From the IMG/VR virus record IMGVR_UViG_2703718827_000002, positions 1 through 50,082 of that record: a stretch of DNA of 50,082 bases. One strand, written 5' to 3'. Shown here piece after piece: positions 1-40,180 of this stretch. This DNA is from a virus (Duplodnaviria > Heunggongvirae > Uroviricota > Caudoviricetes). How positions within the stretch are numbered: position 1 is the stretch's first letter; every line of letters begins with the position of its first letter. A program made the position numbers and the translations under genes. A model generated the notes under the pieces. It worked only from the letters and a program-made list of their open reading frames with translations. It did no database searches and was not told the origin of the DNA.

Positions 1-99
1 GAATTGCAGCTGCATCGACGACAACCGGAAGATAAGCACCCGGCGCTGCACCACAAAGCATTTCTCCCGCATCAGCGGGTAACGACAGAGGGTAAGTCA

Positions 100-768
100 A
101 TGATTCGTCTTAACAACGAAATTAAAAATCAGCTATGCCATAACCTGCTTCTCGCATCCCCATTGTTTGAGAAAGCGAAAGCTGCGGTTAATGAGAGGGC
201 GAAAATTGTTGAAGAAATTCGACAGGCATTGCTCAAGCAGGAAAACACTAGCGATGAGCAAATAACTAAGGCTCGGGAAGATTTCAAAGATAACTCCTTC
301 ATCAAGATGCAGGTCGGCGCTAAAACTGCAACTTTAAAGGTCATTATTAATGGTGAGTATCACGAATTAGCCAGGAACGGTTTGGATCATCGCTATCGCC
401 ACCGTGGAAAACATATTGGTAAGCACGATCTTGAAAGCGACCTGTTCTTCGGAGCTTCCTTCGCGCCTGTAATTGATTCGGGTTTCGTTCCTGAAAGTTA
501 CAGCACGCTGAAGAAAGTTGGAAAATTACACGACCGACTCACTGAATCGACGGTAACCATCAACGTTCTTTACGATGAAGTTGATGCCTTCCAATTGCAG
601 GTTAAAGGTGCTCTAACCAAAGTCTCAACTGTTAAAAAACTGGCTGAGATGTGGCCTGAGGCAGTGCCATATTTGCCTGAGGTGGAACGCCGTGAAGCGA
701 CCAGCACCGCACTTGCCATTCCCGTTGAAACGCTAAACGCCCTTTGCGGCATACCAAAGAATGAATGA
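100..768 (+). CDS. Hypothetical early-region protein (222 aa)
   Basis: ORF 4..768 begins at TTG; ATG at 100 is preceded by GAGGG RBS; followed by a hairpin terminator; no family recognised. Confidence 0.55.
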   Translation: MIRLNNEIKNQLCHNLLLASPLFEKAKAAVNERAKIVEEIRQALLKQENTSDEQITKAREDFKDNSFIKMQVGAKTATLKVIINGEYHELARNGLDHRYRHRGKHIGKHDLESDLFFGASFAPVIDSGFVPESYSTLKKVGKLHDRLTESTVTINVLYDEVDAFQLQVKGALTKVSTVKKLAEMWPEAVPYLPEVERREATSTALAIPVETLNALCGIPKNE

Positions 769-790
769 CCCGCTCCGGCGGGTTTTTTAT
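769..790 (+). terminator. Rho-independent terminator (CCCGC-TCCG-GCGGG + T6)
   Basis: Perfect 5-bp GC stem, 4-nt loop, followed by TTTTTT immediately after the stop codon at 766-768. Confidence 0.7.
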
Positions 791-929
791 CGGCCATACA
801 TAGGCAGATTTTCGAGTCTGCCCATTTATGACAACCGGCGGCCATCCACCGCCCATTGAAACACTGAATAAATGCGTTGAAGTCTTGTATTAACCGTTCC
901 GTTCGCCGCGATAAGGCCAAGAGGAAATC

Positions 930-1058
930 ATGGTAAACCAGCAGCAGATCAGAGAGGCCCAACGGCTCGCGTCGTTCGCGGTGCTCCATCGCAATGCTCC
1001 GGCGTGGGAAGAAGCAAAACGCCTTTACGCCGTCGCCATCGGGAGGACTCTTCACTGA
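930..1058 (+). CDS. Small hypothetical protein (42 aa)
   Basis: ATG with GAGGAAA RBS; stop TGA overlaps the next ATG (TGATG); below the ORF-track size cutoff. Confidence 0.4.
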   Translation: MVNQQQIREAQRLASFAVLHRNAPAWEEAKRLYAVAIGRTLH

Positions 1059-1255
1059 TGGAAACTTTATTCGCACTCGTCCTGACCGTGGCAATGACCA
1101 ACGGTGATTATCAGGATGTCATTCTCGGCGTTTACGACAGCCAGCAGGAATGCAGCCTGGCAGCTACAGAGCAGAAAGTGTCAGCTGAGTGCTGGCCGGT
1201 AGAAAGCATCATCCGCAACGGCGAGTTCCCGGCGAAATCCATCGCGCAGCAGTAA
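1058..1255 (+). CDS. Small hypothetical protein with hydrophobic N-terminus (65 aa)
   Basis: ATG at 1058 inside track ORF 1004..1255 (GTG start); GGGAGG RBS; translationally coupled to the upstream small ORF. Confidence 0.45.
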   Translation: METLFALVLTVAMTNGDYQDVILGVYDSQQECSLAATEQKVSAECWPVESIIRNGEFPAKSIAQQ

Positions 1256-1325
1256 CCACCCTATTCAACCGATCGGCCTGGCATTACGCGGGCGGGATCT
1301 GCACATCCAAATTTCAGGAGAAACC

Positions 1326-2297
1326 ATGAGCGAAGTAACGGATTTAGTCGTCATTGAGAAACAGAACGCAATGGCGGTATTCACCACCAAAGAGCAGCTC
1401 GACCCTATTATTGAGGCGATCGAGAAAGAAGCTCGCAGCCTGGTACCGGATGTGTCGACCCGCAAAGGCCGCGACGCGATCGCATCCATGGCGCATAAGG
1501 TTGCCCGCTCCAAAACCTATATCGACAACGCCGGCAAGGATCTGGTTGCCGAGCTTAAAGCCCTGCCGAAGCAGATCGACGAAAGCCGCCGCATTGTGCG
1601 TGAGAGGCTGGACGCGCTGAAGGATGAAGTACGGCGCCCACTTACCGAATGGGAAGCCGAGCAGGAACGTATTAAGGCTGAAGAAGCCATGAACGCGATG
1701 CACGCCGAAGCACTGGTGATGAACGAGAGCATCGATTTGCAGCGGGCTATTCAGTTCGAAGCGGACCACGAAATGGCTCTGCTGATGAATAAGGATTTTG
1801 ACCGGGACCGCGAAGAGCAGCGCCGCCTGGCGGAACAGGCTCAACGTGAGCATGAAGAGCGCATTAAGAGTGAAGCGGCAGAGCAAGCCCGACGCGATGC
1901 CGAAGCGAAGCACAAAGCAGAAATTGAAGCCGCAGCGCGCCGTGAAGCTGAAGAGAAAGCGCGTGCAGAGCTGGCGGAACGCCAGCGCATTGAAGCGGAA
2001 CAGCGTGCGACACGCGAGAAGAAGGAAGCAGAAGCCCGGGCGGAAAGAGAAAAAGCTGCGGCAGTGGAAGCTGAGCGCCACAAGGCAAAACAGGCCGAAG
2101 ATGCTCGCCTGGCCGAAGAGAAGCGCCTCGCCGATGAACAGGCAAAGCGCGAAGCTGACGTGAAGCACCGCAAGACGGTCGGCACCAACATCGTTAACGC
2201 GCTCACCAGCCACACCAGCTTAACCCGCGAACAGGCTATCGAAGTGCTCACCGCACTTAAAGACGACCTAATCCCCTGCGCAAAAATTCATTACTGA
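1326..2297 (+). CDS. Coiled-coil phage protein with long Glu/Arg/Ala/Lys-rich region
   Basis: AGGAGA RBS; 323 aa; central charged low-complexity segment; sits upstream of the gam/bet/exo cluster. Confidence 0.6.
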   Translation: MSEVTDLVVIEKQNAMAVFTTKEQLDPIIEAIEKEARSLVPDVSTRKGRDAIASMAHKVARSKTYIDNAGKDLVAELKALPKQIDESRRIVRERLDALKDEVRRPLTEWEAEQERIKAEEAMNAMHAEALVMNESIDLQRAIQFEADHEMALLMNKDFDRDREEQRRLAEQAQREHEERIKSEAAEQARRDAEAKHKAEIEAAARREAEEKARAELAERQRIEAEQRATREKKEAEARAEREKAAAVEAERHKAKQAEDARLAEEKRLADEQAKREADVKHRKTVGTNIVNALTSHTSLTREQAIEVLTALKDDLIPCAKIHY

Positions 2298-2304
2298 GGC
2301 AACC

Positions 2305-2589
2305 ATGAACGCATACCTCACTTACGACCGCATCGAAGATCGGCGCTGGGTTGAGCAGCAGCTCACCGACGAGAAGGAGAAGTGGATCGACGACCGGGCT
2401 CAGAAAATCATCGACATGATGCCAAAAGAGCCGTCCGGCCTCTTCCACTTCACGGTCCCGATTGACTCCAGCCCATACGAAGGACTTCGCAGCGATAAAG
2501 CTGGCGAGGCTTACAACGATTTCATTTCGGCAGTTGCTTACGCCCAAGCGGAATACGACTGGGAACACCGTACCGGCTGCCCGTTTTAA
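2305..2589 (+). CDS. Gam-like protein (possible RecBCD inhibitor), short form
   Basis: N-terminus MNAYLTYDRIEDRRW resembles lambda GamS MNAYYIQDRLEAQSW; lies immediately upstream of bet/exo; C-terminus diverges. Confidence 0.45.
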   Translation: MNAYLTYDRIEDRRWVEQQLTDEKEKWIDDRAQKIIDMMPKEPSGLFHFTVPIDSSPYEGLRSDKAGEAYNDFISAVAYAQAEYDWEHRTGCPF

Positions 2590-2607
2590 TTTTTGAGGGG
2601 ATTAACG

Positions 2608-3453
2608 ATGGCAAACGAATTAACAATCACAGCGACGTCGCTTCAGGAGATAGGCGTCGACGTCTCCACCTGGAGCGCGCTGAAGAACAGCATCTACCCT
2701 GGCGCCAAAGACGAATCGGTAATGATGGCGCTTGATTACTGCCGCGCCCGCCAGTTGGATCCGTTGCTCAAACCTGTCCACCTCGTTCCGATGTACGTCA
2801 AAGACTCGAAAACAGGTAAAGGTGACTGGCGCGACGTGGTCATGCCTGGCATCGGGCTTTACCGCATTCAGGCAGACCGTTCCGGCGATTATGCCGGGGC
2901 TCGCGAGCCTGAGTTCGGGCCAGACACGACGCAGACACTTTCTGGTGTCGAGGTGACCTTCCCTCAGTGGTGCAAATACACCGTCTACAAGCGCATGCCC
3001 AGCGGCGAGATCGTCGAGTTCAGCGCCAAAGAATACTGGATTGAAAACTATGCCACCGCCGGCCGCGACACCACGGCGCCGAATGCAATGTGGAAAAAGC
3101 GCCCATACGGCCAGCTGGCGAAATGCGCAGAAGCCCAGGCGTTGCGTAAGGCATGGCCTGAGATTGGACAGCAGCCTACCGCCGAAGAAATGGAAGGCAA
3201 ATCACTGGACGTTGATATCCGTGACGTCACGCCGCGCAACACCACTGAAGCACTTCCACCAGCAGCAAGCGAAGAAACGCTGCAGGCGATAACCGATCTC
3301 TTAACGACACTGGATAAAGACTGGGAGAAAGACTTCCTCCCTGTGTGCAGAGACATCTTCAAACGGCCAATTCTTGAGGCGTCAGACCTCACTGAAGAAG
3401 AGGCACAGAAAGGGTTCAACTTCCTTCAGAAAAAAGCTAAGGCGGCAGCATGA
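2608..3453 (+). CDS. bet: RecT/Red-beta family single-strand annealing protein (Bet-like)
   Basis: C-terminal region closely matches lambda Bet (recalled); ATG at 2608 with GAGGGG RBS (track start 2593 is TTG); stop overlaps exo. Confidence 0.8.
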
Positions 3454-4130
3454 CACCCGAAATTATCCTGTCCCGGACTGGCATTGACGTAACCACGATC
3501 CAACAGGGCGACGAGGCATGGCACCGGCTGCGTCTCGGCGTCATTACTGCCTCTGAAGTGCATAACGTCATTTCCAAGCCGCGCTCCGGCACCAAATGGA
3601 CGGGCATGAAGATGTCCTACTTCCACACCCTACTCGCCGAGGTATGCACCGGCGTAGCACCAGAGGTTAATGCCAAGGCGTTGGCCTGGGGCAAGCAGTA
3701 CGAGGAAGACGCCCGCACCCTCTTCGAGTTCACCACTGACGTGAAAGTCACGGAGTCTCCGATCCTGTTCCGTGACGAGAGCATGCGCACCGCGTGCTCC
3801 CCTGACGGCCTTTGCAGTAACAATTTCGGCCTTGAGCTGAAATGCCCGTTCACCTCCCGCGACTTTATGAAATTCCGCCTCGGCGGTTTCGAAGCCATTA
3901 AGTCCGAGTACATGGCCCAGGTGCAGTACAGCATGTGGGTGACCGGAAAAGACGCCTGGTTCTTTGCCAACTACGACCCGCGCATGAAGCGCGAAGGTAT
4001 TCACCACGTCGTCGTTGAGCGGGACCCGCAGTACATGACCGATTTCAACGAAATGGTGCCGGAGTTCATTGAGAAGATGGACGAGGCGCTGGCAGAGATC
4101 GGCTTCACGTTCGGGGAACAGTGGAAATGA
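3450..4130 (+). CDS. exo: Lambda-type 5'-3' exonuclease (Red-alpha / YqaJ family)
   Basis: Sequence is near-collinear with recalled lambda Exo (MTPDIILQRTGIDV..., [24 protein letters not shown]). Confidence 0.9.
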
Positions 4131-6965: not shown

Positions 6966-7181
6966 ATGAATGACAGTATCCTGCTTACCAGTGACGTACT
7001 GGCTCGCTATAAGATTTCCCGGAGCACTCTGTATTTCTGGAGCACCCCGGAGCGAATGCCTGCTGGCTTCACCTGCCCTTTCCCCAAACCAACAATCCCC
7101 GGCAACCCAAAACGCTGGAGAGAGTCGGAGATCGTTTCGTGGGAAATGCAGGTCAACGCCTCTAAAGCTGATACCCAATAA
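6966..7181 (+). CDS. AlpA-family excisionase / phage regulatory protein
   Basis: 71 aa; LARYKISRSTLYFW helix-turn-helix typical of AlpA/Xis-like proteins; convergent with and overlapping the 3' end of the integrase. Confidence 0.6.
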   Translation: MNDSILLTSDVLARYKISRSTLYFWSTPERMPAGFTCPFPKPTIPGNPKRWRESEIVSWEMQVNASKADTQ

Positions 7182-8343
7182 TGCTCTGCAGGTGATTCTG
7201 CCAAATACCCAACCACTCGCGCTGGTCATCCATATAGTCGTGCAGGTTGTATCTGGCCATCACCCCACCCATCTGATGACCAAGCAGCTTTTCAATAACA
7301 TGCGGTGGCGCGCCAAGTTCTGACAACCTGGTTGCAACGGTGCGCCTCAGGTCATGCAGAGACCACTGTTTCATGTCTGTCTTTCTGATCACCTGCATGG
7401 AATAGGTCGAGACTAGGGCCTGAGTAGGTGGAATGTCTTCTTTATCTCGGAACTGAGCCGGTGTTAAAACGTGCTTAGTGACCGAACCTCTTTTATGCTC
7501 CTGAAGCAGCCTGATCGCCACTTCAGGCAATGCCCTCCTGATCGTCTTCCCTGTTTTGTAATCCTCAGCCGGTACCGTCCAGGTCTTTTCATTAAAGTTG
7601 TACCAGTCCCAGCGCGATTTCCTTATTTCTGCAGCCCTGCACCCAGTCAGGAGCATGAACCGTATAACAAGTTGCTGTGATGGAGGGAGCGCGAAAAGTG
7701 TATCCCAAACCACTTTGATCTCTTCGTCGGAGAGTCGCCTCTCCTTCATCTTCGCTGCAATACCAACGTCTGATCTGCGCAAGGATTCAAGCGGGTTGTT
7801 TTTAATTACCCCTCGGTTATGGCAGAACCGGAACGCGCGCTTCATTAATGACAGCATCTCACCAGTAATAACCGAACGCCCCATCTCGTCGAACACATCA
7901 AGCCAGTTAGCCTTGAACGTCTGATCAACCATCGCCCTGCCAATGCGCGGGCTAATGTGCTTCTGAAAGCTCCTGGTATTGGCATCGATTTTGATCAGAC
8001 CCTCGGGAATGCAGTAATGCTTTACCCAGTACTCATACGCCTGGTCAACCGTTAGCGCCTCTATCCTTTCTGCTTTCTCAACCAGAACCTTCTGGCGTGG
8101 ATCGTAACCCTCACTCAGCCAGGCGCGAAACTGCTGCCTGCGGTCTCTTGCCTGCGCTAATGAATAGGCTGGGTATTCACCTATACTGAGTTGCACCGGC
8201 TTACCCTGCCAGCGATAACGGTAGAAGAAAGTTACGCCACCAGTTATGCTTAACCTGACATTAAGCCCGTTTGAATCTGAGAGAACTTCCACACTCTCTC
8301 TGCGCTTACCAAGCGCCTTACGAAGTTTTGTATCTGTGAGCAT
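7162..8343 (-). CDS. int: Tyrosine integrase (P4-type)
   Basis: C-terminal catalytic region with HDLRRT...LLGH...Y; N-terminal MLTDTKLRKA typical of P4-like integrases; ATG at 8343 with AGGGG RBS (track start 8352 is GTG). Confidence 0.85.
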   Translation of the reverse strand: MLTDTKLRKALGKRRESVEVLSDSNGLNVRLSITGGVTFFYRYRWQGKPVQLSIGEYPAYSLAQARDRRQQFRAWLSEGYDPRQKVLVEKAERIEALTVDQAYEYWVKHYCIPEGLIKIDANTRSFQKHISPRIGRAMVDQTFKANWLDVFDEMGRSVITGEMLSLMKRAFRFCHNRGVIKNNPLESLRRSDVGIAAKMKERRLSDEEIKVVWDTLFALPPSQQLVIRFMLLTGCRAAEIRKSRWDWYNFNEKTWTVPAEDYKTGKTIRRALPEVAIRLLQEHKRGSVTKHVLTPAQFRDKEDIPPTQALVSTYSMQVIRKTDMKQWSLHDLRRTVATRLSELGAPPHVIEKLLGHQMGGVMARYNLHDYMDDQREWLGIWQNHLQSIIGYQL

Positions 8344-8645
8344 CGTGTACACCCCTGAGCCATGTACTCAGCAGTGTACACAAAACACGTAAATTGCAAC
8401 CATACAAAATAAAACACGTTAAAGAGTTATAAACAATGAAGTGAGTAACGGCGCGGTTTTGGCGGGAATAATTTTAAACGCAATAAAACACGATAAAGCA
8501 GAACTCGTTGAAGTATTATGCCTCAGGAAGATAAATCCTAACCAGACTGCCAGTCCTTCGGGGCTGGCGCTGTATCTCCTCTGTTCTCCTCAGGAAAATC
8601 ATAGTAGCATCGCGCCTGTGATTTTCCTTTTAAGTCGGTTTTACC

Positions 8646-9044
8646 ATGTCTACAACACATAACGTCCCTCAGGGCGATCTTGTTTTACGTACTTTAGCCA
8701 TGCCCGCCGATACCAATGCCAATGGTGACATCTTTGGTGGTTGGTTAATGTCACAAATGGATATTGGCGGCGCTATTCTGGCAAAAGAAATTGCCCACGG
8801 TCGCGTAGTGACTGTGCGGGTTGAAGGAATGACTTTCTTACGGCCGGTTGCGGTCGGCGATGTGGTGTGCTGCTATGCACGCTGTGTCCAGAAAGGGACG
8901 ACATCGGTCAGCATTAATATTGAAGTGTGGGTGAAAAAAGTAGCGTCTGAACCAATTGGGCAACGCTATAAAGCGACAGAAGCATTATTTAAGTATGTCG
9001 CGGTTGATCCTGAAGGAAAACCTCGCGCCTTACCTGTTGAGTAA
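8646..9044 (+). CDS. yciA: Acyl-CoA thioesterase YciA
   Basis: 132-aa product matches recalled E. coli YciA along its length. Confidence 0.85.
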   Translation: MSTTHNVPQGDLVLRTLAMPADTNANGDIFGGWLMSQMDIGGAILAKEIAHGRVVTVRVEGMTFLRPVAVGDVVCCYARCVQKGTTSVSINIEVWVKKVASEPIGQRYKATEALFKYVAVDPEGKPRALPVE

Positions 9045-9047
9045 TAG

Positions 9048-9080
9048 TCAAAAGCCTCCGGTCGGAGGCTTTTGACTTTC
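9048..9080. terminator. Bidirectional terminator between convergent yciA and tonB
   Basis: Long inverted repeat TCAAAAGCCTCCG / CGGAGGCTTTTGA with A/T runs on both sides. Confidence 0.7.
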
Positions 9081-9083
9081 TGC

Positions 9084-9803
9084 TTACTGAATTTCGGTGG
9101 TGCCGTTAATTTTAAACAGGATATTCACCACAATCCCACTGCCTGGCTTACCCGGCTCATAACGCCATCTGCGCATCGCATTTTTCACCTCACGCTCAAA
9201 CATGTTCGCAGGCTTGGCTGAGAGGATTTGTACGTTATCCACGCGACCATCCGGCGTAACGTCAAATTTAACTTTAACCTGCCCTTCAATGCGCAATGCC
9301 TGTGCTCGTGCCGGATACTGCGGCTGATTACGGCTTAATGCGCGTGGTCCTGAAGCCACACTGGTAACCGGCTTGCTGGTTGCAGCCGTTGCTGTACTTG
9401 ATGTCAGGCGTGCCGGTGCCGTATTTTCAAACGGTGATGCCGGACGCGACTCTACGGGTTTGACATCGCGTTTTGGCTGCTCCTGTACCTTTTTCACCGG
9501 CTTCGGTTTTGGCTTAGGTTTCGGCTTCGGCTTTTCAATGACCACCGGTGCTTCTTTTGGCGGTTCGGGGATCGGCTCAGGTTCCGGTTCTGGCTCTACC
9601 ACCGGCTCCGGTGGCGGCTGAACGGCTTGTGGCGGTTCGAGATCAGCAGGCGTAACCATCGTGACAGAAATCGGCTGCGCAGGCGCAGGTAGTTCAATAA
9701 CCTGATGTACCGAGGTATAGAGCAGACCCGCCACAACAGCACCATGAATGCAGACCGAAAGTAACGTCGGCCAGGGGAAGCGGCGAGGTAAATCAAGGGT
9801 CAT
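9084..9803 (-). CDS. tonB: TonB energy-transducing protein
   Basis: MTLDLPRRFPWPTLLSV..., (EP)n and (KP)n repeats, C-terminal domain; 239 aa from ATG at 9803 (track ORF extends upstream to 9854). Confidence 0.9.
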   Translation of the reverse strand: MTLDLPRRFPWPTLLSVCIHGAVVAGLLYTSVHQVIELPAPAQPISVTMVTPADLEPPQAVQPPPEPVVEPEPEPEPIPEPPKEAPVVIEKPKPKPKPKPKPVKKVQEQPKRDVKPVESRPASPFENTAPARLTSSTATAATSKPVTSVASGPRALSRNQPQYPARAQALRIEGQVKVKFDVTPDGRVDNVQILSAKPANMFEREVKNAMRRWRYEPGKPGSGIVVNILFKINGTTEIQ

Positions 9804-10026
9804 TGAAGTCATAATCATTTCAGTAGAAAAACCAGGTCTCGATTTTAAATGCAAATAGCAATCATATTCAATAAGGCAAGACGATCAGGATCAGTGAAAA
9901 TGTCATTTTTGGCGTAATTACCCTTACTTTATGCATGGCCTTAACAAAGACATCATCTTTCCGTTGCAGATCTTCGCCCTTTCAAATAACGTACTTTACA
10001 ACTTTCCCGAACAAGGAGTTGTGCCC

Positions 10027-10323
10027 GTGTTGTATGTTATTTACGCTCAAGACAAAGCTGATAGCCTCGAAAAACGCCTTTCCGTTCGTCCGGCACATTT
10101 AGCACGTTTACAGTTACTGCATGATGAAGGTCGTTTGTTGACAGCTGGTCCAATGCCAGCGGTAGACAGTAACGATCCAGGGGCTGCGGGATTTACTGGC
10201 TCAACCGTTATTGCTGAATTTGAATCGCTGGAAGCAGCTCAGGCCTGGGCCGATGCTGACCCGTACGTAGCGGCAGGAGTCTATGAACACGTTTCAGTGA
10301 AACCATTTAAGAAAGTGTTCTAA
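10027..10323 (+). CDS. yciI: YciI-like protein
   Basis: 98-aa product from GTG start matching the recalled yciI neighbour of tonB; track ORF 9931..10323 extends upstream. Confidence 0.7.
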
Positions 10324-10441: not shown

Positions 10442-10990
10442 TCAGCTAGCTGGAAACTTTTTATACAGAGTTGAGAGCCCTACTCCATACGTTTTTGATA
10501 CGCTTTGTCGTGATTCACCGGTTGCCATCCGCTCCCCCATTTCCCGCCATTGCTCATCCGTGAACTTAGGCCTGCGACCACCAACTCGCCCTTTTGCCCT
10601 GGCTACGGCCAGCCCTGCTAAGGTACGTTCGCTATTAAGATCAGATTCATATTGTGCTGCGGAAAGGATGTTACGAAAGTTATAGCGGCCGCTGGCTGTT
10701 TTGAGATCCACGCCATCGGTAATACTGCGGAAGTTGATACCCTTTTCCTGTAACTGCTGGAACATCAACAGCGCATGCAGAACGTTGCGGCCTATCCTGT
10801 CCAGCTTCCAGACCACCAGTTCATCCCCCGGCTGCATAGTGGCGATCAGCCGTTTTAGAACCGGCCGATTCGATTTCCTCCCGCTGGCATGCTCTTCAAA
10901 AATTTTCTCACAACCCGCTGACTTGAGCGCCGTTAGTTGCAATTCAGTGTCCTGGTGGTTTGTTGATACTCGGGCATAACCGTAAATCAT
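10442..10990 (-). CDS. Serine recombinase, Hin/Gin/Pin-type DNA invertase
   Basis: MIYGYARVSTNHQD...VVWKLDRIGR...C-terminal HTH GLSTLYKK; 182 aa; typical resolvase/invertase catalytic domain. Confidence 0.85.
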   Translation of the reverse strand: MIYGYARVSTNHQDTELQLTALKSAGCEKIFEEHASGRKSNRPVLKRLIATMQPGDELVVWKLDRIGRNVLHALLMFQQLQEKGINFRSITDGVDLKTASGRYNFRNILSAAQYESDLNSERTLAGLAVARAKGRVGGRRPKFTDEQWREMGERMATGESRQSVSKTYGVGLSTLYKKFPAS

Positions 10991-37527: not shown

Positions 37528-38109
37528 TTATTTTGCAGTTTTGTATTCAATAAACCCGTCAAAAATCAGACTATCGATGGTCATCATTTTCGTAAGTTTT
37601 TCCATAACCTCAGGATTTTCTTGCATATCAACAAGCCATCTCCTCACGCCATTAGCTATATCATTACATAACTCAATAACATCTAATTGCAGAACACCAT
37701 TAAAAGCATTCATATGTGCATGAAGGTTTTCTCGCGCAGGGGTCGTTATCTTAAACTTCCTTAGCTTCGTTTCATCAACGCCTTCATGCAAACATGCATT
37801 CCTTAAACTCCAACAGTCTTCTGCAGTGAATGAGACTACGGGTTTTTGCGCCCTTAAGCTTTGCTTTATTCCTTCAGGCATGCTCTGAACCATTGCAGGG
37901 CTGGTGAGACTTAAATAGTCATACATGTTATCAGCGTTATATCTTGGCTTAAGATAGCGATTAAACCAGTCCTTGTACCTCGCGCCATTTCCTTTGATTT
38001 TATCCTCTGTCGCGCCACAGATGTCAGGAAGTGATATTGCTATGAATAAAGCACCAAACCAATTCTTTTTAGACAAGCAATCATCTATTCCACTCAGCAA
38101 CTGTTGCAT
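37528..38109 (-). CDS. Hypothetical protein (193 aa) with R-x4-H motif, insertion between lysis cassette and terminase
   Basis: ATG 38109 with AAGGTG RBS (track start 38190 is GTG overlapping Rz); visibly AT-rich; SLRNACLHEG contains R-x4-H; hairpin terminator downstream. Confidence 0.55.
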   Translation of the reverse strand: MQQLLSGIDDCLSKKNWFGALFIAISLPDICGATEDKIKGNGARYKDWFNRYLKPRYNADNMYDYLSLTSPAMVQSMPEGIKQSLRAQKPVVSFTAEDCWSLRNACLHEGVDETKLRKFKITTPARENLHAHMNAFNGVLQLDVIELCNDIANGVRRWLVDMQENPEVMEKLTKMMTIDSLIFDGFIEYKTAK

Positions 38110-38177
38110 ATATGAGCACCTTATTTTGTTGTAGACAGAGCCTACAATACAACCAGATGCAACTATTAAGAAAACCT

Positions 38178-38639
38178 TTACTTCAAGCACTGAGTGCTTA
38201 GATATTCCTGAAGATAGCCAACCTGCTTCATCACTGTGGCGATTCTTTCTCTGAGGGTGAAATAATCCCGTTCAGCGGAGTCAGTAAGTCGGGGGCCGGA
38301 AGCATCGCCCATGCCGCTGGAGCCGGTCGTTCCGTTCGCGGGACAGTTTGCGTTGAGCTGCAGCCGCTTACGGCCAGCAATGACATCGCTATGCAGACGC
38401 TCAATGGTTTCTTTCGCATCAGCTAGTTCTCCGGTGTATTTGGCATCCAGTGCAGCGACATCACGCTGGCGGGCCTGCATGTCTTTTATGGTGGTGTTAG
38501 CCAGGCTGAGTTTCTCAGTGGCTTTATCGCGCTGGTCTTTATAAGCGATGGCGTTGTCGCGGTAGTGGTTAATCGCCCAGGCCATGGAAACGAGCAGGCA
38601 GATAACGACAGCACAGATGATTGCTGTTAATCGGCTCAT
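38178..38639 (-). CDS. Rz-like inner-membrane spanin
   Basis: N-terminal TM helix, coiled-coil periplasmic domain, ATGA overlap with endolysin stop, embedded Rz1 ORF. Confidence 0.75.
38231..38419 (-). CDS. Rz1-like outer-membrane lipoprotein spanin (embedded in Rz, +1 frame)
   Basis: [20 protein letters not shown] lipoprotein signal, Pro-rich mature peptide, fully nested in Rz. Confidence 0.7.
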
Positions 38640-39130
38640 TTCTGGCCCCACTCGCAAACTTCGCGCTCAATCTCGCGCCGGGTTATCAGTCCCTTCCACT
38701 GCTTGCCACCGGCATACGTCCAGCGTTGCAGTTCTTTGCATGCCCCCGGCACGTCTCCGGCGTTCAGCTTCTTCAGCAGCGTCGAGCTGGCAAAAGCACC
38801 AGAGCCAACGTTATAGGTGAAGGAGTAAAGCGCGGCGCGGGTTGGCTCAGGAATGCGAACCTTGATCAGCGGGTCGATAGCATTTGCCACCTTTCGCAGA
38901 TCGGCCTTCAGCATGTTGTCGCACTCTTTGTCGGTGTATCGGTGACCGCGGCGAATGTCCGCTCCGGTGTGCCCATCGCAAACAGTCCAGACGCCGACCA
39001 CATCCTGATAGGCGTAATAGCGCCGTCCTTCCAGCCCATCGGCATTGCCCAGCATTACTGCAGCAATGGTGATGGCTCCGGATCCGCCAACAATGGCACC
39101 CACCAGCTTATTCCTCAACGTTGGGTTCAT
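38636..39130 (-). CDS. SAR endolysin (GH24 lysozyme)
   Basis: N-terminal Gly/Ala-rich signal-anchor-release helix followed by T4-lysozyme-like core ([16 protein letters not shown]). Confidence 0.8.
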
Positions 39131-39332
39131 CTCGGCTCCTGCTGCGGCGGTTGTCTTCGCGGATCTTGAAATAGAGATTCGTCAGATACGTCAGTACGGC
39201 AATGATGATACCCACCAGCACGCCGATAGCGTTCCACTGCTCGGGGCTGTAGGCATTAAGCATGCCGTTTAGGATGCTCCCGGCTGAAGCGCCATAGGCA
39301 GCACCAGTGGTTATTTTTTCCATGCGATACAT
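39108..39332 (-). CDS. Pinholin (S21-like) with dual start
   Basis: Resembles phage 21 S ([11 protein letters not shown]...[25 protein letters not shown]); Met1 and Met4 give a holin/antiholin dual-start motif. Confidence 0.8.
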
Positions 39333-39433
39333 GCTCTCACCTCGCGTAGTTAGCGGGTGCTGTTCGTGTAGTGGGAAAGGCCGTCAAACACGATAGCTAC
39401 GGGGCATCTGAAAGTGATTGTCTGCGGCCTGAA

Positions 39434-39457
39434 TAAAAAACCCGGCGACAGGCCGGG
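39434..39457 (-). terminator. Rho-independent terminator downstream of the tRNA (tR'-like position)
   Basis: On - strand: CCCGGCC-tgtc-GCCGGG followed by TTTTTT. Confidence 0.6.
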
Positions 39458-39511
39458 AAGATGAGGGTAAGGCAATGTCGGCTCTACGGCCTATCCCAGC
39501 TGGCGGGATTC

Positions 39512-39587
39512 TGGTGCTGATTGACGGAGTTGAACCGCCGACATCCTGCTTACAAGGCAGGCGCTCTACCTACTGAGCTAAATCAGC
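39512..39587 (-). tRNA. tRNA-Thr (anticodon TGT), phage-encoded
   Basis: Hand-folded cloverleaf: 7-bp acceptor stem GCTGATT/AATCAGC, D-arm GCTC/GAGC, anticodon arm CCTGC-CTTGTAA-GCAGG, T-arm GGCGG-TTCAACT-CCGTC, 3' ACCA; differs from recalled host tRNA-Thr. Confidence 0.8.
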
Positions 39588-39679
39588 CAATAAAAAAGCC
39601 CCGCACGATGGCGAGGCTGGTTATTCATTCATGTCACACACAACAATGGCAACATATACGAATTATTCTGCTCATTTGT

Positions 39680-40180
39680 TCATTGAAAAGCAAGCACGTT
39701 GTGAACATTTTTTGCAACTTTGTTCACATTATCGCGGCTGATAAAGGCATTTTGCAGCGGTTGATACAGGCAGAACAGTGCCGCGTTAAGTGTTTCCTTC
39801 ACCTCCCGGCGTATGGTGGATATGCTCGGGTGCTTATACTGATTCCCGCCACGCGTCTTCATCACTCGAGGTTTGCTCACAGCGTGCTGCCAGCTGGCGA
39901 TGCGGATCTCACTGGAGTTGCAGACGTAATAGGCGAAGACAACACGCCAGGCGTTCTCGTCGATATTTTTCAGGTAATGGCGCAGCACTGCGTCAATCAG
40001 CATACCGTCGTCGTCGCTACATACCGGGCGAGATGCCTGCTGCGGTTCGACGGTCGCCATAAACTTGGCAATCATGTTGATCATCGCCTTGTCTATCTTC
40101 CCGGTCTGCGACCATGCACCCCACAACTGGAGCCACTGATCAATCCACTGATGCTGCTCGTTGGTTAATTCCAGTTTCAT
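39680..40180 (-). CDS. Late-gene antiterminator Q
   Basis: LWGAW...SRPVCSDDDGMLID...AYYV motifs typical of Q-family antiterminators; position upstream of the lysis cassette. Confidence 0.7.
   Translation of the reverse strand: MKLELTNEQHQWIDQWLQLWGAWSQTGKIDKAMINMIAKFMATVEPQQASRPVCSDDDGMLIDAVLRHYLKNIDENAWRVVFAYYVCNSSEIRIASWQHAVSKPRVMKTRGGNQYKHPSISTIRREVKETLNAALFCLYQPLQNAFISRDNVNKVAKNVHNVLAFQ

Follow-up and report, generated by a model that had tools for sequence, protein, structure and literature searches.

The stretch of DNA analysed here (hereafter the window) spans 50,082 bases and contains an intact tRNA-Thr(UGU) gene, which opens the late operon of a phage-21-like lambdoid prophage of E. 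coli. A circularly permuted phage genome, with bet and exo at 1-4130, was considered for the whole window and was ruled out by host DNA at 8400-10321, which corresponds to E. coli yciA-tonB-yciI (99.9%). The presence of this host segment inside the window indicates that a short piece of host DNA separates two prophages, and the GamL gene at 2305-2589 is part of the neighbouring prophage rather than of the tRNA-bearing one.

ARAGORN analysis of the whole window returned a single tRNA, a 76-nt tRNA-Thr with anticodon tgt and an encoded CCA (39512..39587, - strand). The Rfam family RF00005 matched 39515-39587 (-) with 75.1 bits (E = 9.6e-15; gathering score 29), the alignment spanning the complete model (1-71 of 71) with posterior probability '*' along the full length, and the minimum free energy (MFE) fold of the isolated 76-mer was the cloverleaf itself (-27.4 kcal/mol; z = -2.48 against shuffles). 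The canonical cloverleaf that had been folded by hand in the initial annotation, 76 nt on the - strand with anticodon TGT and an encoded CCA, was thus recovered by ARAGORN, Rfam and the MFE fold alike, and the verdict that had been left to a tRNA predictor is a called tRNA above the Rfam threshold and not a pseudogene. The acceptor stem comprises the pairs GC, CG, TA, GC, AT, TA and TA, followed by the discriminator A73 and CCA, and the 3' end reads ...AATCAGC-A-CCA, so that CCA is part of the gene. ThrRS identity is conferred by the anticodon UGU with G35 and U36 plus G1-C72 and C2-G71; since G1-C72, C2-G71, G35 and U36 are all present in this tRNA-Thr, charging by ThrRS is to be expected. 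The anticodon stem is formed by C28-U29-G30 / C40-A41-G42 with C27-G43 paired, all five pairs being Watson-Crick, and the anticodon region runs U36-A-A-G39, which gives UAAGCA here versus UAAUCA in the host gene thrU.

Upstream of the tRNA lies the gene of a 166-aa Q antiterminator of the Q21 family (39680..40180, -; PF06530, E = 2.7e-21; phrog_943, E = 3.3e-69), residues 2-155 of which matched the solved Q21 structures 6P18/6JNX in a phmmer comparison (E = 3.3e-45). A putative late promoter region pR' (39650..39693, -) overlaps the 3' end of Q and was recognized by homology to phage 21. On the - strand it includes a -35-like TTGCTT (39693-39688), a QBE-like AATGAACAAATGAGCA (39684-39669), a -10-like AGAATA (39669-39664), a predicted transcription start near 39657, and a sigma-dependent pause-like TATGTTG (39656-39650). 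The region was aligned with the annotated phage 21 elements, namely the -35 TTGACA, the QBE ATTGAGCA/AATGAGCA, the -10, the TSS, and the SDPE; the downstream half-site (QBEd) of the predicted QBE is identical to that of phage 21, and QBEu matches at 6 of 8 positions. The pR' region is nearly invariant in HK639 and the E. coli relatives, and a consensus scan placed a promoter-like site at 39689..39662.

The tRNA is preceded by an intrinsic terminator, tR' (39589..39618, -), which was recognized by a terminator scan and from its sequence as an 8-bp stem with 6 G-C pairs followed by TTTTTTATT. Its hairpin (39618-39597) also appears when the leader is folded by MFE, and the T-tract ends about 4 nt (1-4) before tRNA position 1. 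tR' is homologous to the annotated HK639 terminator and occupies the position of the phage 21 terminator that abuts tRNA-Asn. This terminator directly upstream of the tRNA is the stronger placed of the two at the locus and had been overlooked initially. The terminator scan yielded a second intrinsic terminator at 39432..39457 (-), CCCGGCCTGTCGCCGGG then TTTTTTATT, the hairpin and TTTTTT of which lie at 39457-39435, 55 nt past the tRNA; the tRNA feature had initially been drawn from 39434 because of it. The second terminator occurs with the same flank in tRNA-less relatives (L006, L007, L101, and L171) and is also found in tRNA-Arg relatives (L111 and L169) and in the Asn-Thr relative L165. The earlier description of a terminator after the tRNA therefore holds for the hairpin itself, but, judging from the sequences of these relatives, the hairpin is a backbone element outside the tRNA cassette.

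The first protein-coding gene of the late operon (39108..39332, -) encodes a class II (S21-type) holin (PF04971 'P21 holin S', E = 1.5e-25; phrog_20), and an identical gene has been named 'class II holin family protein' by PGAP. The genes of the endolysin (38636-39130, -; PF00959, E = 5e-44) and an Rz-like spanin (38178-38657, -; PF03245, E = 9.5e-43) together occupy 38178..39130, with phrog_7/phrog_13 matches across the lysis cassette, and terminase lies further on. No credible ORF was found in the Q-holin interval, and in E. coli 23CRST004, where the stretch is 100% identical, only 'tRNA-Thr' was annotated by PGAP, which agrees with the initial statement that the gap codes for the tRNA only. 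By itself, the tRNA-Thr gene is an ordinary feature that is already annotatable.

The anatomy of the locus suggests that the tRNA is very probably functional and co-expressed with the late genes. A search for a dedicated tRNA promoter between tR' and the tRNA found none; since the ~4 nt between the T-tract and tRNA position 1 leave no room for such a promoter, transcription would occur mainly by Q-dependent read-through, once Q carries RNA polymerase through tR' and the next terminator. As the gene order and the homology to phage 21 suggest, the tRNA-Thr would then lie on one transcript with the holin, endolysin, spanin, terminase, and virion genes, from which it would be freed by RNase P and 3' trimming. 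After charging by ThrRS, it would read ACA, a codon for which E. coli relies on the single-copy thrU tRNA.

The exact tRNA-Thr sequence was detected in one of 5426 complete E. coli genomes, where it lies within a prophage. The closest E. coli chromosomal tRNA was thrU with 77.6% identity, whereas the identities over the full 76 nt were 94.7% to Klebsiella phage 5 LV-2017, 90.8% to T4, and 89.5% to P1 trnT, that is, about 90% or more to the phage genes and clearly lower to thrU. This difference identifies the tRNA-Thr as phage cargo of the T4/P1/Klebsiella-prophage tRNA-Thr(UGU) lineage, and both earlier suggestions, that it differs from the host tRNA-Thr isoacceptors and that it is phage cargo, are borne out. 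The D arm of the window gene is identical to that of the T4 and Klebsiella phage 5 LV-2017 tRNA-Thr, with one D-loop position differing in P1 trnT; T4 also has the same acceptor stem, and those of P1 and the Klebsiella phage resemble it closely. The anticodon arm CCUGC/GCAGG of the window gene recurs unchanged in the tRNA-Thr of P1 and the Klebsiella phages, while the anticodon stem of T4 tRNA-Thr departs at 30-40 and 31-39 (CUC/GAG, U39). All four anticodon-stem differences between the window and T4 genes are compensatory, and they make up 4 of the 7 differences between the two (p = 0.0046); no such concentration in the anticodon stem was seen against thrU (p = 0.15) or P1 (0 of 8 differences), and no general claim on anticodon-stem divergence is drawn.

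[quoted passage not shown] The genomic contexts are also distinct. thrU belongs to the thrU-tyrU-glyT-thrT-tufB operon and the window gene to a prophage late operon; the T4 gene lies within a cluster of eight tRNAs (seven in the region examined), and P1 trnT is placed after tRNA-Asn in a context unlike that of the window. In the Klebsiella prophages, the tRNA-Thr is likewise located just downstream of the Q gene, but this Q is unrelated and has ~270 aa. Prophages often integrate into tRNA genes, and the window does contain host DNA (yciA-tonB-yciI), both of which would suit a host tRNA gene, an attachment-site duplicate, or a pseudogene mistaken for phage cargo. Such an origin is for practical purposes refuted by the position of the gene between Q and the holin, some 29 kb into the prophage, by the identity of only 77.6% to the nearest host tRNA, and by the Rfam score of 75.1 bits; relatives of several phage types moreover carry the tRNA at the same internal position.

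A late-operon tRNA arrangement of this kind is already known from phage 21 (GenBank OL657228), in which a Q21-family Q, pR'/QBE/pause, a terminator, a tRNA after the T-tract, and the S21-type holin, endolysin, and spanin genes follow one another in the same order. The corresponding parts are predicted in the window, where the Q21-family Q, the predicted pR'/QBE/pause with a terminator and an abutting same-strand tRNA, and the S21-type holin give the locus the features of a phage-21-type island. The phage 21 tRNA-Thr21 has UGU and G39, as has the window tRNA-Thr, and was shown to protect against P2-OLD (PMC12445682). However, it is only 73.7% identical to the window tRNA-Thr and represents a different lineage, and its U28-A42 and G27/A43 mismatch, which result in an altered CNG and a shorter stem, are both lacking in the window gene. 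Phage 21 also carries tRNA-Asn and tRNA-Thr where the window has Thr alone, and the two Q proteins are homologous but divergent. In the Stx phage 933W, ileZ-argN-argO are annotated in GenBank between Q and stx2; Q, pR', qut, and terminators precede them, and the lysis genes come after. The Q-to-S interval, to which the window tRNA had initially been assigned by comparison with Stx phages, is therefore indeed a tRNA site, with ileZ-argN-argO and stx in 933W and tRNA-Asn and tRNA-Thr in phage 21. The 933W tRNAs, in contrast, are Ile-AUA and two Arg behind another Q type, with a putative separate tRNA promoter pT annotated ~370 nt after pR', whereas the window tRNA is a Thr that abuts tR'; toxin genes follow the tRNAs in 933W, and no cargo gene does so in the window.

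The same junction was surveyed in relatives, mainly in IMG/VR contigs, with a Q search of genome contigs giving five loci. In 67 relatives the sequence extends 2.5 kb or more past Q; of these, 28 had no tRNA there and 39 had one to five. The tRNAs in this island were of the types Thr, Arg, Asn, Gly, Phe, and Met and formed fourteen allele combinations. All 79 lie on the Q strand, the first one abutting tR' or a further hairpin, and 40 of them are Thr or Asn; tRNA-Lys(UUU) was found neither in the window nor among the 79. The flanks of the island are common to different alleles. In L164 the tRNA-Thr is truncated, with an insertion within the tRNA-Thr copy; L163 holds a chimera of lineages B and A with a broken anticodon arm, and the empty alleles contain a possible 3' tRNA remnant. 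The window tRNA cassette is one allele of this polymorphic tRNA island after tR', and a lambdoid prophage has thus acquired a T4/P1-type tRNA-Thr(UGU) at its Q-tR' junction.

As to its purpose, the initial annotation regarded the tRNA as cargo for late-gene translation, which would mean that it enlarges the pool of a minor ACA decoder and speeds bulk late translation in a phage that uses ACA more. The late co-transcription included in this proposal follows from the anatomy, and the position within the late transcript fits; ACA is also served by a single host gene (PMC12445682), with a median of one matching site in each genome. ACA is slightly elevated in the late genes, at 10.5 per 1000 codons against 6.7 in the early genes (p = 0.03), and rises to 13.0 in the tail genes. 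Nevertheless, the comparison with the host that the initial annotation had called for did not reveal a significant enrichment (10.5 versus 8.2 per 1000; Fisher p = 0.085, OR 1.28, on a small host sample of 15.6k codons). The head and lysis genes (7.2 per 1000) lie below the host value, ACA accounts for 2 of the 18 Thr codons of the major capsid gene, and by enrichment it comes 20th among the 61 codons in the window and 29th, with a ratio of 1.04, in the pooled relatives. Across 61 IMG/VR relatives, compared over 10 kb after Q with statistics that ignore kinship, the median ACA use was 7.7 per 1000 in tRNA-Thr carriers and 8.7 in non-carriers (p = 0.34), and the same comparison for Arg/AGA likewise showed no higher codon use in carriers. 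Codon compensation for ACA, which predicts more ACA in the phage than in the host and in carriers than in non-carriers, therefore found no support in any of the three tests (late/early/host, 61-codon rank, and carriers/non-carriers), and is considered rather unlikely for this tRNA. The island Arg(UCU) and Gly(UCC) alleles do match enriched codons (AGG 4-6x and GGA 1.7x), which favours codon supply elsewhere in the island; if it were the driver here, tRNA-Arg(UCU) rather than Thr would be expected in this phage. Since Arg(UCU) and Gly(UCC) fit rare-codon supply, a single purpose for the island is not required.

The classical codon-usage explanation thus fails for this isoacceptor, while tRNA-ThrU is what P2-OLD mainly attacks and is a prime target of PARIS as well. 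P2-OLD was reported in 2025, in a study with a library of 245 tRNAs, to kill by cleaving host tRNA-ThrU, the sole UGU tRNA; phage tRNA-Thr(UGU) genes, including that of phage 21, were shown to rescue by replacing tRNA-ThrU and to help lambda survive, resistance requiring that the CNG motif be altered and the anticodon stem shortened as well (PMC12445682). tRNA-ThrU was likewise found in 2025 to be a prime target of PARIS AriB, which cleaves at 40|41 beside U36-A-A-U39, and the U39-to-A exchange abolished cleavage of tRNA-Lys (PMC12409363). For rescue from PARIS, T4 needs only T5 tRNA-Lys and T7 needs Lys and Thr, and the B185 PARIS system could be neutralised only with a resistant tRNA-Lys(UUU) (PMC12409363). 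The best-fitting purpose of the window tRNA-Thr, to which about an even chance is given, would be that of a back-up sustaining ACA decoding in lytic growth once competing P2-like prophages or P4-like satellites have destroyed host tRNA-ThrU with their tRNA-cleaving Toprim nucleases (P2-OLD, PARIS AriB, and relatives). Adjustment to phage codon usage is less likely than such a back-up.

With the P2-OLD-resistant class, the window tRNA shares the UGU anticodon. Its CNG motif is CUG/CAG as in the sensitive thrU (CUC/GAG in T4 and UCG/CGA in Thr21), and the 27-43 pair is retained as C27-G43. The allele therefore has neither of the published features of P2-OLD resistance, position 39 (U39-to-G) being the only change. 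Relative to thrU, this substitution stands beside the AriB cleavage site, as in AriB-resistant phage tRNAs, but the companion tRNA-Lys(UUU) is missing, the window having one tRNA. The allele thus retains the P2-OLD-sensitivity motifs of thrU and alters a position that matters for AriB; U39-to-G may act in tRNA-Thr as U39-to-A does in tRNA-Lys, from which its effect is extrapolated. T4, which is rescued by T5 tRNA-Lys alone, itself has a tRNA-Thr 90.8% identical to that of the window. The known counterparts, T5 tRNA-Lys/Thr/Asn against PARIS AriB and tRNA-Thr6 against P2-OLD, have in common with the window the Thr(UGU) isoacceptor that replaces tRNA-ThrU. The window allele differs from the tRNA-Thr6/P2-OLD class in having no CNG alteration or stem shortening, and nuclease-resistant sets comprise many tRNAs in a virulent phage, whereas the window holds a temperate lambdoid prophage.

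Several observations in the relatives argue for the counter-nuclease back-up, namely G39 in all three unrelated island tRNA-Thr lineages, C39 in both tRNA-Asn lineages, and the 40 of 79 island tRNAs that are Thr or Asn, together with the failing of ACA supply. Against it count the intact CNG, the full stem, the lack of tRNA-Lys, and the location of the Gam gene in the neighbouring prophage, as well as the Arg/Gly alleles that fit codon supply. G39 is also present in the island tRNA-Arg(UCU) alleles, and the host tRNA-Thr(GGU) (thrT) has the corresponding G, so that G39 is not diagnostic, and P1 tRNA-Asn keeps U-A-A-U. Ten moron-like ORFs were screened with PADLOC for a tRNA nuclease or another defence gene borne by the prophage, which gave only an HNH homing-endonuclease match. 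A wider proposal, that Q21-type lambdoid phages have a modular counter-defence island directly behind tR' and that the window allele is an escape variant tuned to a nuclease other than that of Thr21, is put forward tentatively and is more doubtful. If so, unrelated tRNA cassettes would be swapped by recombination, replacing tRNAs cut by rival P2/P4-type anticodon-arm nucleases; the window allele, with its intact CNG, full stem, and G39, would be tuned to an AriB-like or other nuclease, and the allele spectrum at one locus would record an arms race over tRNA-ThrU.

The variability of the island would also follow if the tRNA were a passenger that currently brings the phage little or nothing. In that case, cassettes would be exchanged through the shared flanks and conserved tRNA segments at a recombination hot spot behind tR', and an allele would merely persist. 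The 28 of 67 relatives without a tRNA are evidently viable lineages, and the fourteen allele combinations, the shared flanks, and the remnants and chimeras (L164, L163, and the empty alleles) are in line with such traffic. A passenger is nonetheless improbable, given that the gene is intact, retains every structural and identity feature, and has compensatory substitutions, that the lineage has been kept at 89.5-95% across T4-like, P1-like, and lambdoid phages, and that a phenotype has been demonstrated for relatives of this tRNA-Thr (PMC12445682, PMC12409363). The location of the tRNA at the 5' end of the late mRNA, with a terminator hairpin on either side, and the insertion within the L164 tRNA-Thr copy would further be compatible with a role in cis, either as an RNase P signal by which the late mRNA loses its tR' leader or as a site that mobile elements target or use for recombination. 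This is very improbable: no integrase or satellite was found nearby, and the same leader and second terminator are kept in tRNA-less relatives, indicating that the late mRNA does not need the tRNA. Conservation, moreover, spans the whole tRNA, anticodon included.

The window carries a phage-lineage tRNA-Thr(UGU) cassette within a late-operon tRNA island of the phage 21 type. ARAGORN called a single tRNA in the 50,082 bases, a 76-nt tRNA-Thr with anticodon tgt at 39512-39587 (-), and the Rfam tRNA model matched 39515-39587 at full length with 75.1 bits, above its gathering score of 29 (E = 9.6e-15), with no irregular pairs flagged. The isolated 76-mer folded into a cloverleaf at -27.4 kcal/mol, with the acceptor stem pairs G-C, C-G, U-A, G-C, A-U, U-A, and U-A followed by the discriminator A and an encoded CCA. 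A hairpin with a T-run lies 55 nt downstream (39457-39435), and the flanking genes encode the Q antiterminator (39680-40180, -) and a class II holin (39108-39332, -). The initial annotation, which described a CCA-bearing tRNA-Thr(TGT) cloverleaf followed by a terminator between Q and holin and proposed a check by tRNA predictors, was confirmed in all these particulars, and the gene was correctly identified.

All on the same strand, NinG, NinI, and NinB precede this segment, and endolysin, Rz, and terminase come after the holin. A prophage of E. coli 23CRST004 matches the 501 bases around the tRNA at 100% identity, and PGAP annotated there an antiterminator Q family protein, a tRNA-Thr, and a class II holin family protein in succession; the arrangement is already known from this annotation and from that of phage 21. 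The window as one phage genome was rejected, with host DNA lying between parts of two prophages. Positions 8400-10321 correspond to yciA-tonB-yciI of E. coli with 99.9% identity, and the host is therefore E. coli. Prophage A (1 to ~8400) contains GamL (2305-2589), RecT/Bet, Exo, and an integrase (7162-8352), which thus belong to the neighbour of the tRNA-bearing prophage. Prophage B, from ~10400 to past the window end (50082), contains the invertase, tail, head, terminase, and lysis genes, the tRNA, Q, the nin genes, and a cI-like repressor.

Q belongs to the Q21 family, whose solved structures 6P18/6JNX it matches at E = 3.3e-45. Phage 21 has been annotated in full (OL657228), and its record contains, in order, Q, the -35 of the late promoter pR', the Q binding element (QBE) ATTGAGCA/AATGAGCA, the -10, the start site, a sigma-dependent pause element, and a terminator, followed by tRNA-Asn beginning at the base right after the terminator, tRNA-Thr, the S21 holin, a SAR endolysin, and spanins. 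The Q-to-tRNA interval of the window aligns with it element by element on the minus strand: a -35-like TTGCTT (39693-39688), a QBE-like AATGAACAAATGAGCA (39684-39669) whose downstream half-site is identical to that of phage 21, a -10-like AGAATA (39669-39664), a predicted transcription start near 39657, a pause-like TATGTTG (39656-39650), and the hairpin of the intrinsic terminator tR' (39618-39597), with TTTTTTATT ending at 39589 and tRNA position 1 at 39587. Whereas the 933W record has an annotated putative tRNA promoter, the window has no room for one between tR' and the tRNA. Since this space is lacking, the tRNA would be transcribed from pR' once Q-modified polymerase reads through tR', and the late transcript would yield it first; tR' may leak to some extent in lysogens. 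The terminator 3' of the tRNA, which the initial annotation described, belongs to the backbone: the identical element and flank recur in relatives that lack a tRNA, that carry tRNA-Arg, or that carry Asn-Thr.

The island was surveyed by ARAGORN in 85 loci with Q proteins 82-100% identical to that of the window, with IMG/VR contigs refetched with 10-kb flanks. At least 2.5 kb of sequence followed Q in 67 IMG/VR loci, of which 28 had no tRNA there, 39 had at least one, and 14 had tRNA-Thr. All 79 island tRNAs lie on the Q strand, comprising Arg(UCU) (27), Asn(GUU) (21), Thr(UGU) (19), Gly(UCC) (6), Phe (4), and Met/Ile(CAU) (2). They form 14 combinations, the largest of five genes. The first abuts either the tR' T-tract or an extra hairpin element of ~80 nt; in one class of relatives (L128, L131, L146, and L155) a conserved long hairpin of this size (cagggctcttggg...caagagccctg) was seen ~90-175 nt after Q, between tR' and the first tRNA. 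The tRNA-Thr genes fall into three unrelated lineages: the window/T4/P1 type, a 75-nt type, and the phage 21 type. A tRNA-Asn(GUU) followed directly by tRNA-Thr(UGU) occurs in P1 (L011, 518-671), phage 21 (L179, 3592-3747), and several Q21-type relatives (L165, L166), assembled from differing tRNA lineages. ARAGORN also found tRNA-Asn(GUU) in HK639 (HM208537.1, 1696-1770), directly past the first annotated terminator downstream of Q, where the GenBank record has only terminators. Enterobacter phage CobraSix and E. coli GN25 carry tRNA-Arg at this position, and in Klebsiella prophages the window's tRNA lineage lies downstream of an unrelated Q.

Turnover at the island site is evident from remnants and one chimera. 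In locus L164, tRNA-Asn is followed ~97-200 nt after Q by the 5' part of a tRNA-Thr of the 75-nt lineage (gccggtctagttcagtggcaga), which then gives way to unrelated DNA. At L163:11255-11329, two tRNA-Thr lineages are joined in a chimera whose anticodon arm is disrupted (CTTGTGATTTGC). Recombination or insertion inside tRNA genes is indicated in both cases. In the empty alleles L006 (~1395-1415), L007, L101, and L171, the shared flank gaacccactacctggga is preceded, in the first ~20 nt past the tR' T-tract, by tgcggtacgccgcac(a/t)ca. This stretch resembles what a deleted tRNA would leave of its 3' end (T-stem strand, acceptor strand, and degenerate CCA), and the empty state would in that case be derived.

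The window tRNA matched something in 5421 of 5426 complete E. coli genomes, typically one chromosomal place per genome (median) at 77.6% identity, namely thrU, the first gene of the thrU-tyrU-glyT-thrT-tufB operon. The tRNA-Thr genes of Klebsiella phage 5 LV-2017 (94.7%), T4 (90.8%), and P1 (trnT, 89.5%) are far closer, and tRNA-Thr21 of phage 21 shares 73.7%. The proposal that the gene is phage cargo, unlike the host isoacceptors, accordingly holds. The window tRNA differs from that of T4 at seven positions; the four within the anticodon stem are compensatory throughout (30-40 G-C for C-G; 31-39 C-G for A-U), the mark of a tRNA that selection keeps functional.

The initial annotation assigned the tRNA to late-gene translation, which agrees with its predicted timing; codon bias did not support it. 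ACA reached 10.5 per 1000 (0.159 of Thr codons) in the window late genes (8,401 codons), 6.7 (0.131) in the early genes (5,049 codons), and 8.2 (0.138) in a small E. coli sample (15,574 codons), so that the proposed late-versus-host comparison gave OR 1.28, p = 0.085. Within the window, ACA stood at 7.2 per 1000 in head and lysis genes and 13.0 in tail genes, and made up 2 of the 18 Thr codons of the major capsid gene. Ranked by enrichment, it came 20th among the 61 codons, and 29th (ratio 1.04) when the late genes of relatives were pooled. Across relatives, with 10 kb of late genes each and kinship ignored, ACA was not higher in tRNA-Thr carriers than in non-carriers (7.7 vs 8.7 per 1000, p = 0.34), nor AGA in tRNA-Arg carriers (p = 0.59). 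AGG ranked first, enriched 6-fold in the window (7.3 vs 1.2 per 1000, late genes at 12000-39340, -, against the E. coli sample) and 3.8-fold in pooled relatives, and GGA ranked fourth in the window (1.7-fold). Codon supply thus reasonably accounts for the island alleles Arg(UCU) and Gly(UCC) but not for Thr(UGU). Both of the former are absent from the window phage despite its AGG and GGA enrichment.

The best-fitting purpose of the Thr allele, to which about an even chance is given by analogy and from one sequence position, would be a nuclease-proof back-up for tRNA-ThrU. Gam triggers P2-OLD, a tRNA-cleaving nuclease of a rival element, which kills the cell by cutting host tRNA-ThrU, the sole UGU tRNA, on the 3' side of the C in paired anticodon-stem CNG motifs; phage tRNA-Thr(UGU) genes, including that of phage 21, rescue by standing in for the host tRNA, and for resistance the CNG motif must be altered and the stem shortened as well (PMC12445682, NAR 2025). 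The window anticodon arm (CCUGC-CUUGUAA-GCAGG) resembles the sensitive thrU, with both motifs intact (C28-U29-G30 and C40-A41-G42) and all five stem pairs Watson-Crick, and therefore lacks the published features of P2-OLD resistance. [quoted passage not shown] Here the window tRNA differs from thrU, with G39 for U39 (UAAGCA vs UAAUCA); G39 occurs in all three island tRNA-Thr lineages and C39 in both tRNA-Asn lineages. PARIS is neutralised by T5 tRNA-Lys, Thr, and Asn together, and T4, with its own tRNA-Thr, needs tRNA-Lys only (PMC12409363); ARAGORN found no tRNA-Lys in the window or among the 79 island tRNAs. The allele is a convenient natural variant for telling OLD from AriB determinants.

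Elsewhere in prophage B, a 220-aa ORF (37528-38190, -) between the Rz spanin and the small terminase matches phrog_18591, with zero matches in Pfam and PADLOC searches; it is a moron-like late-operon gene with a homologue in the 23CRST004 prophage. At the prophage end, a resolvase/invertase (10442-10990, -; PF00239 and HTH_7) adjoins the tail-fibre genes, which suggests an invertible host-range segment.
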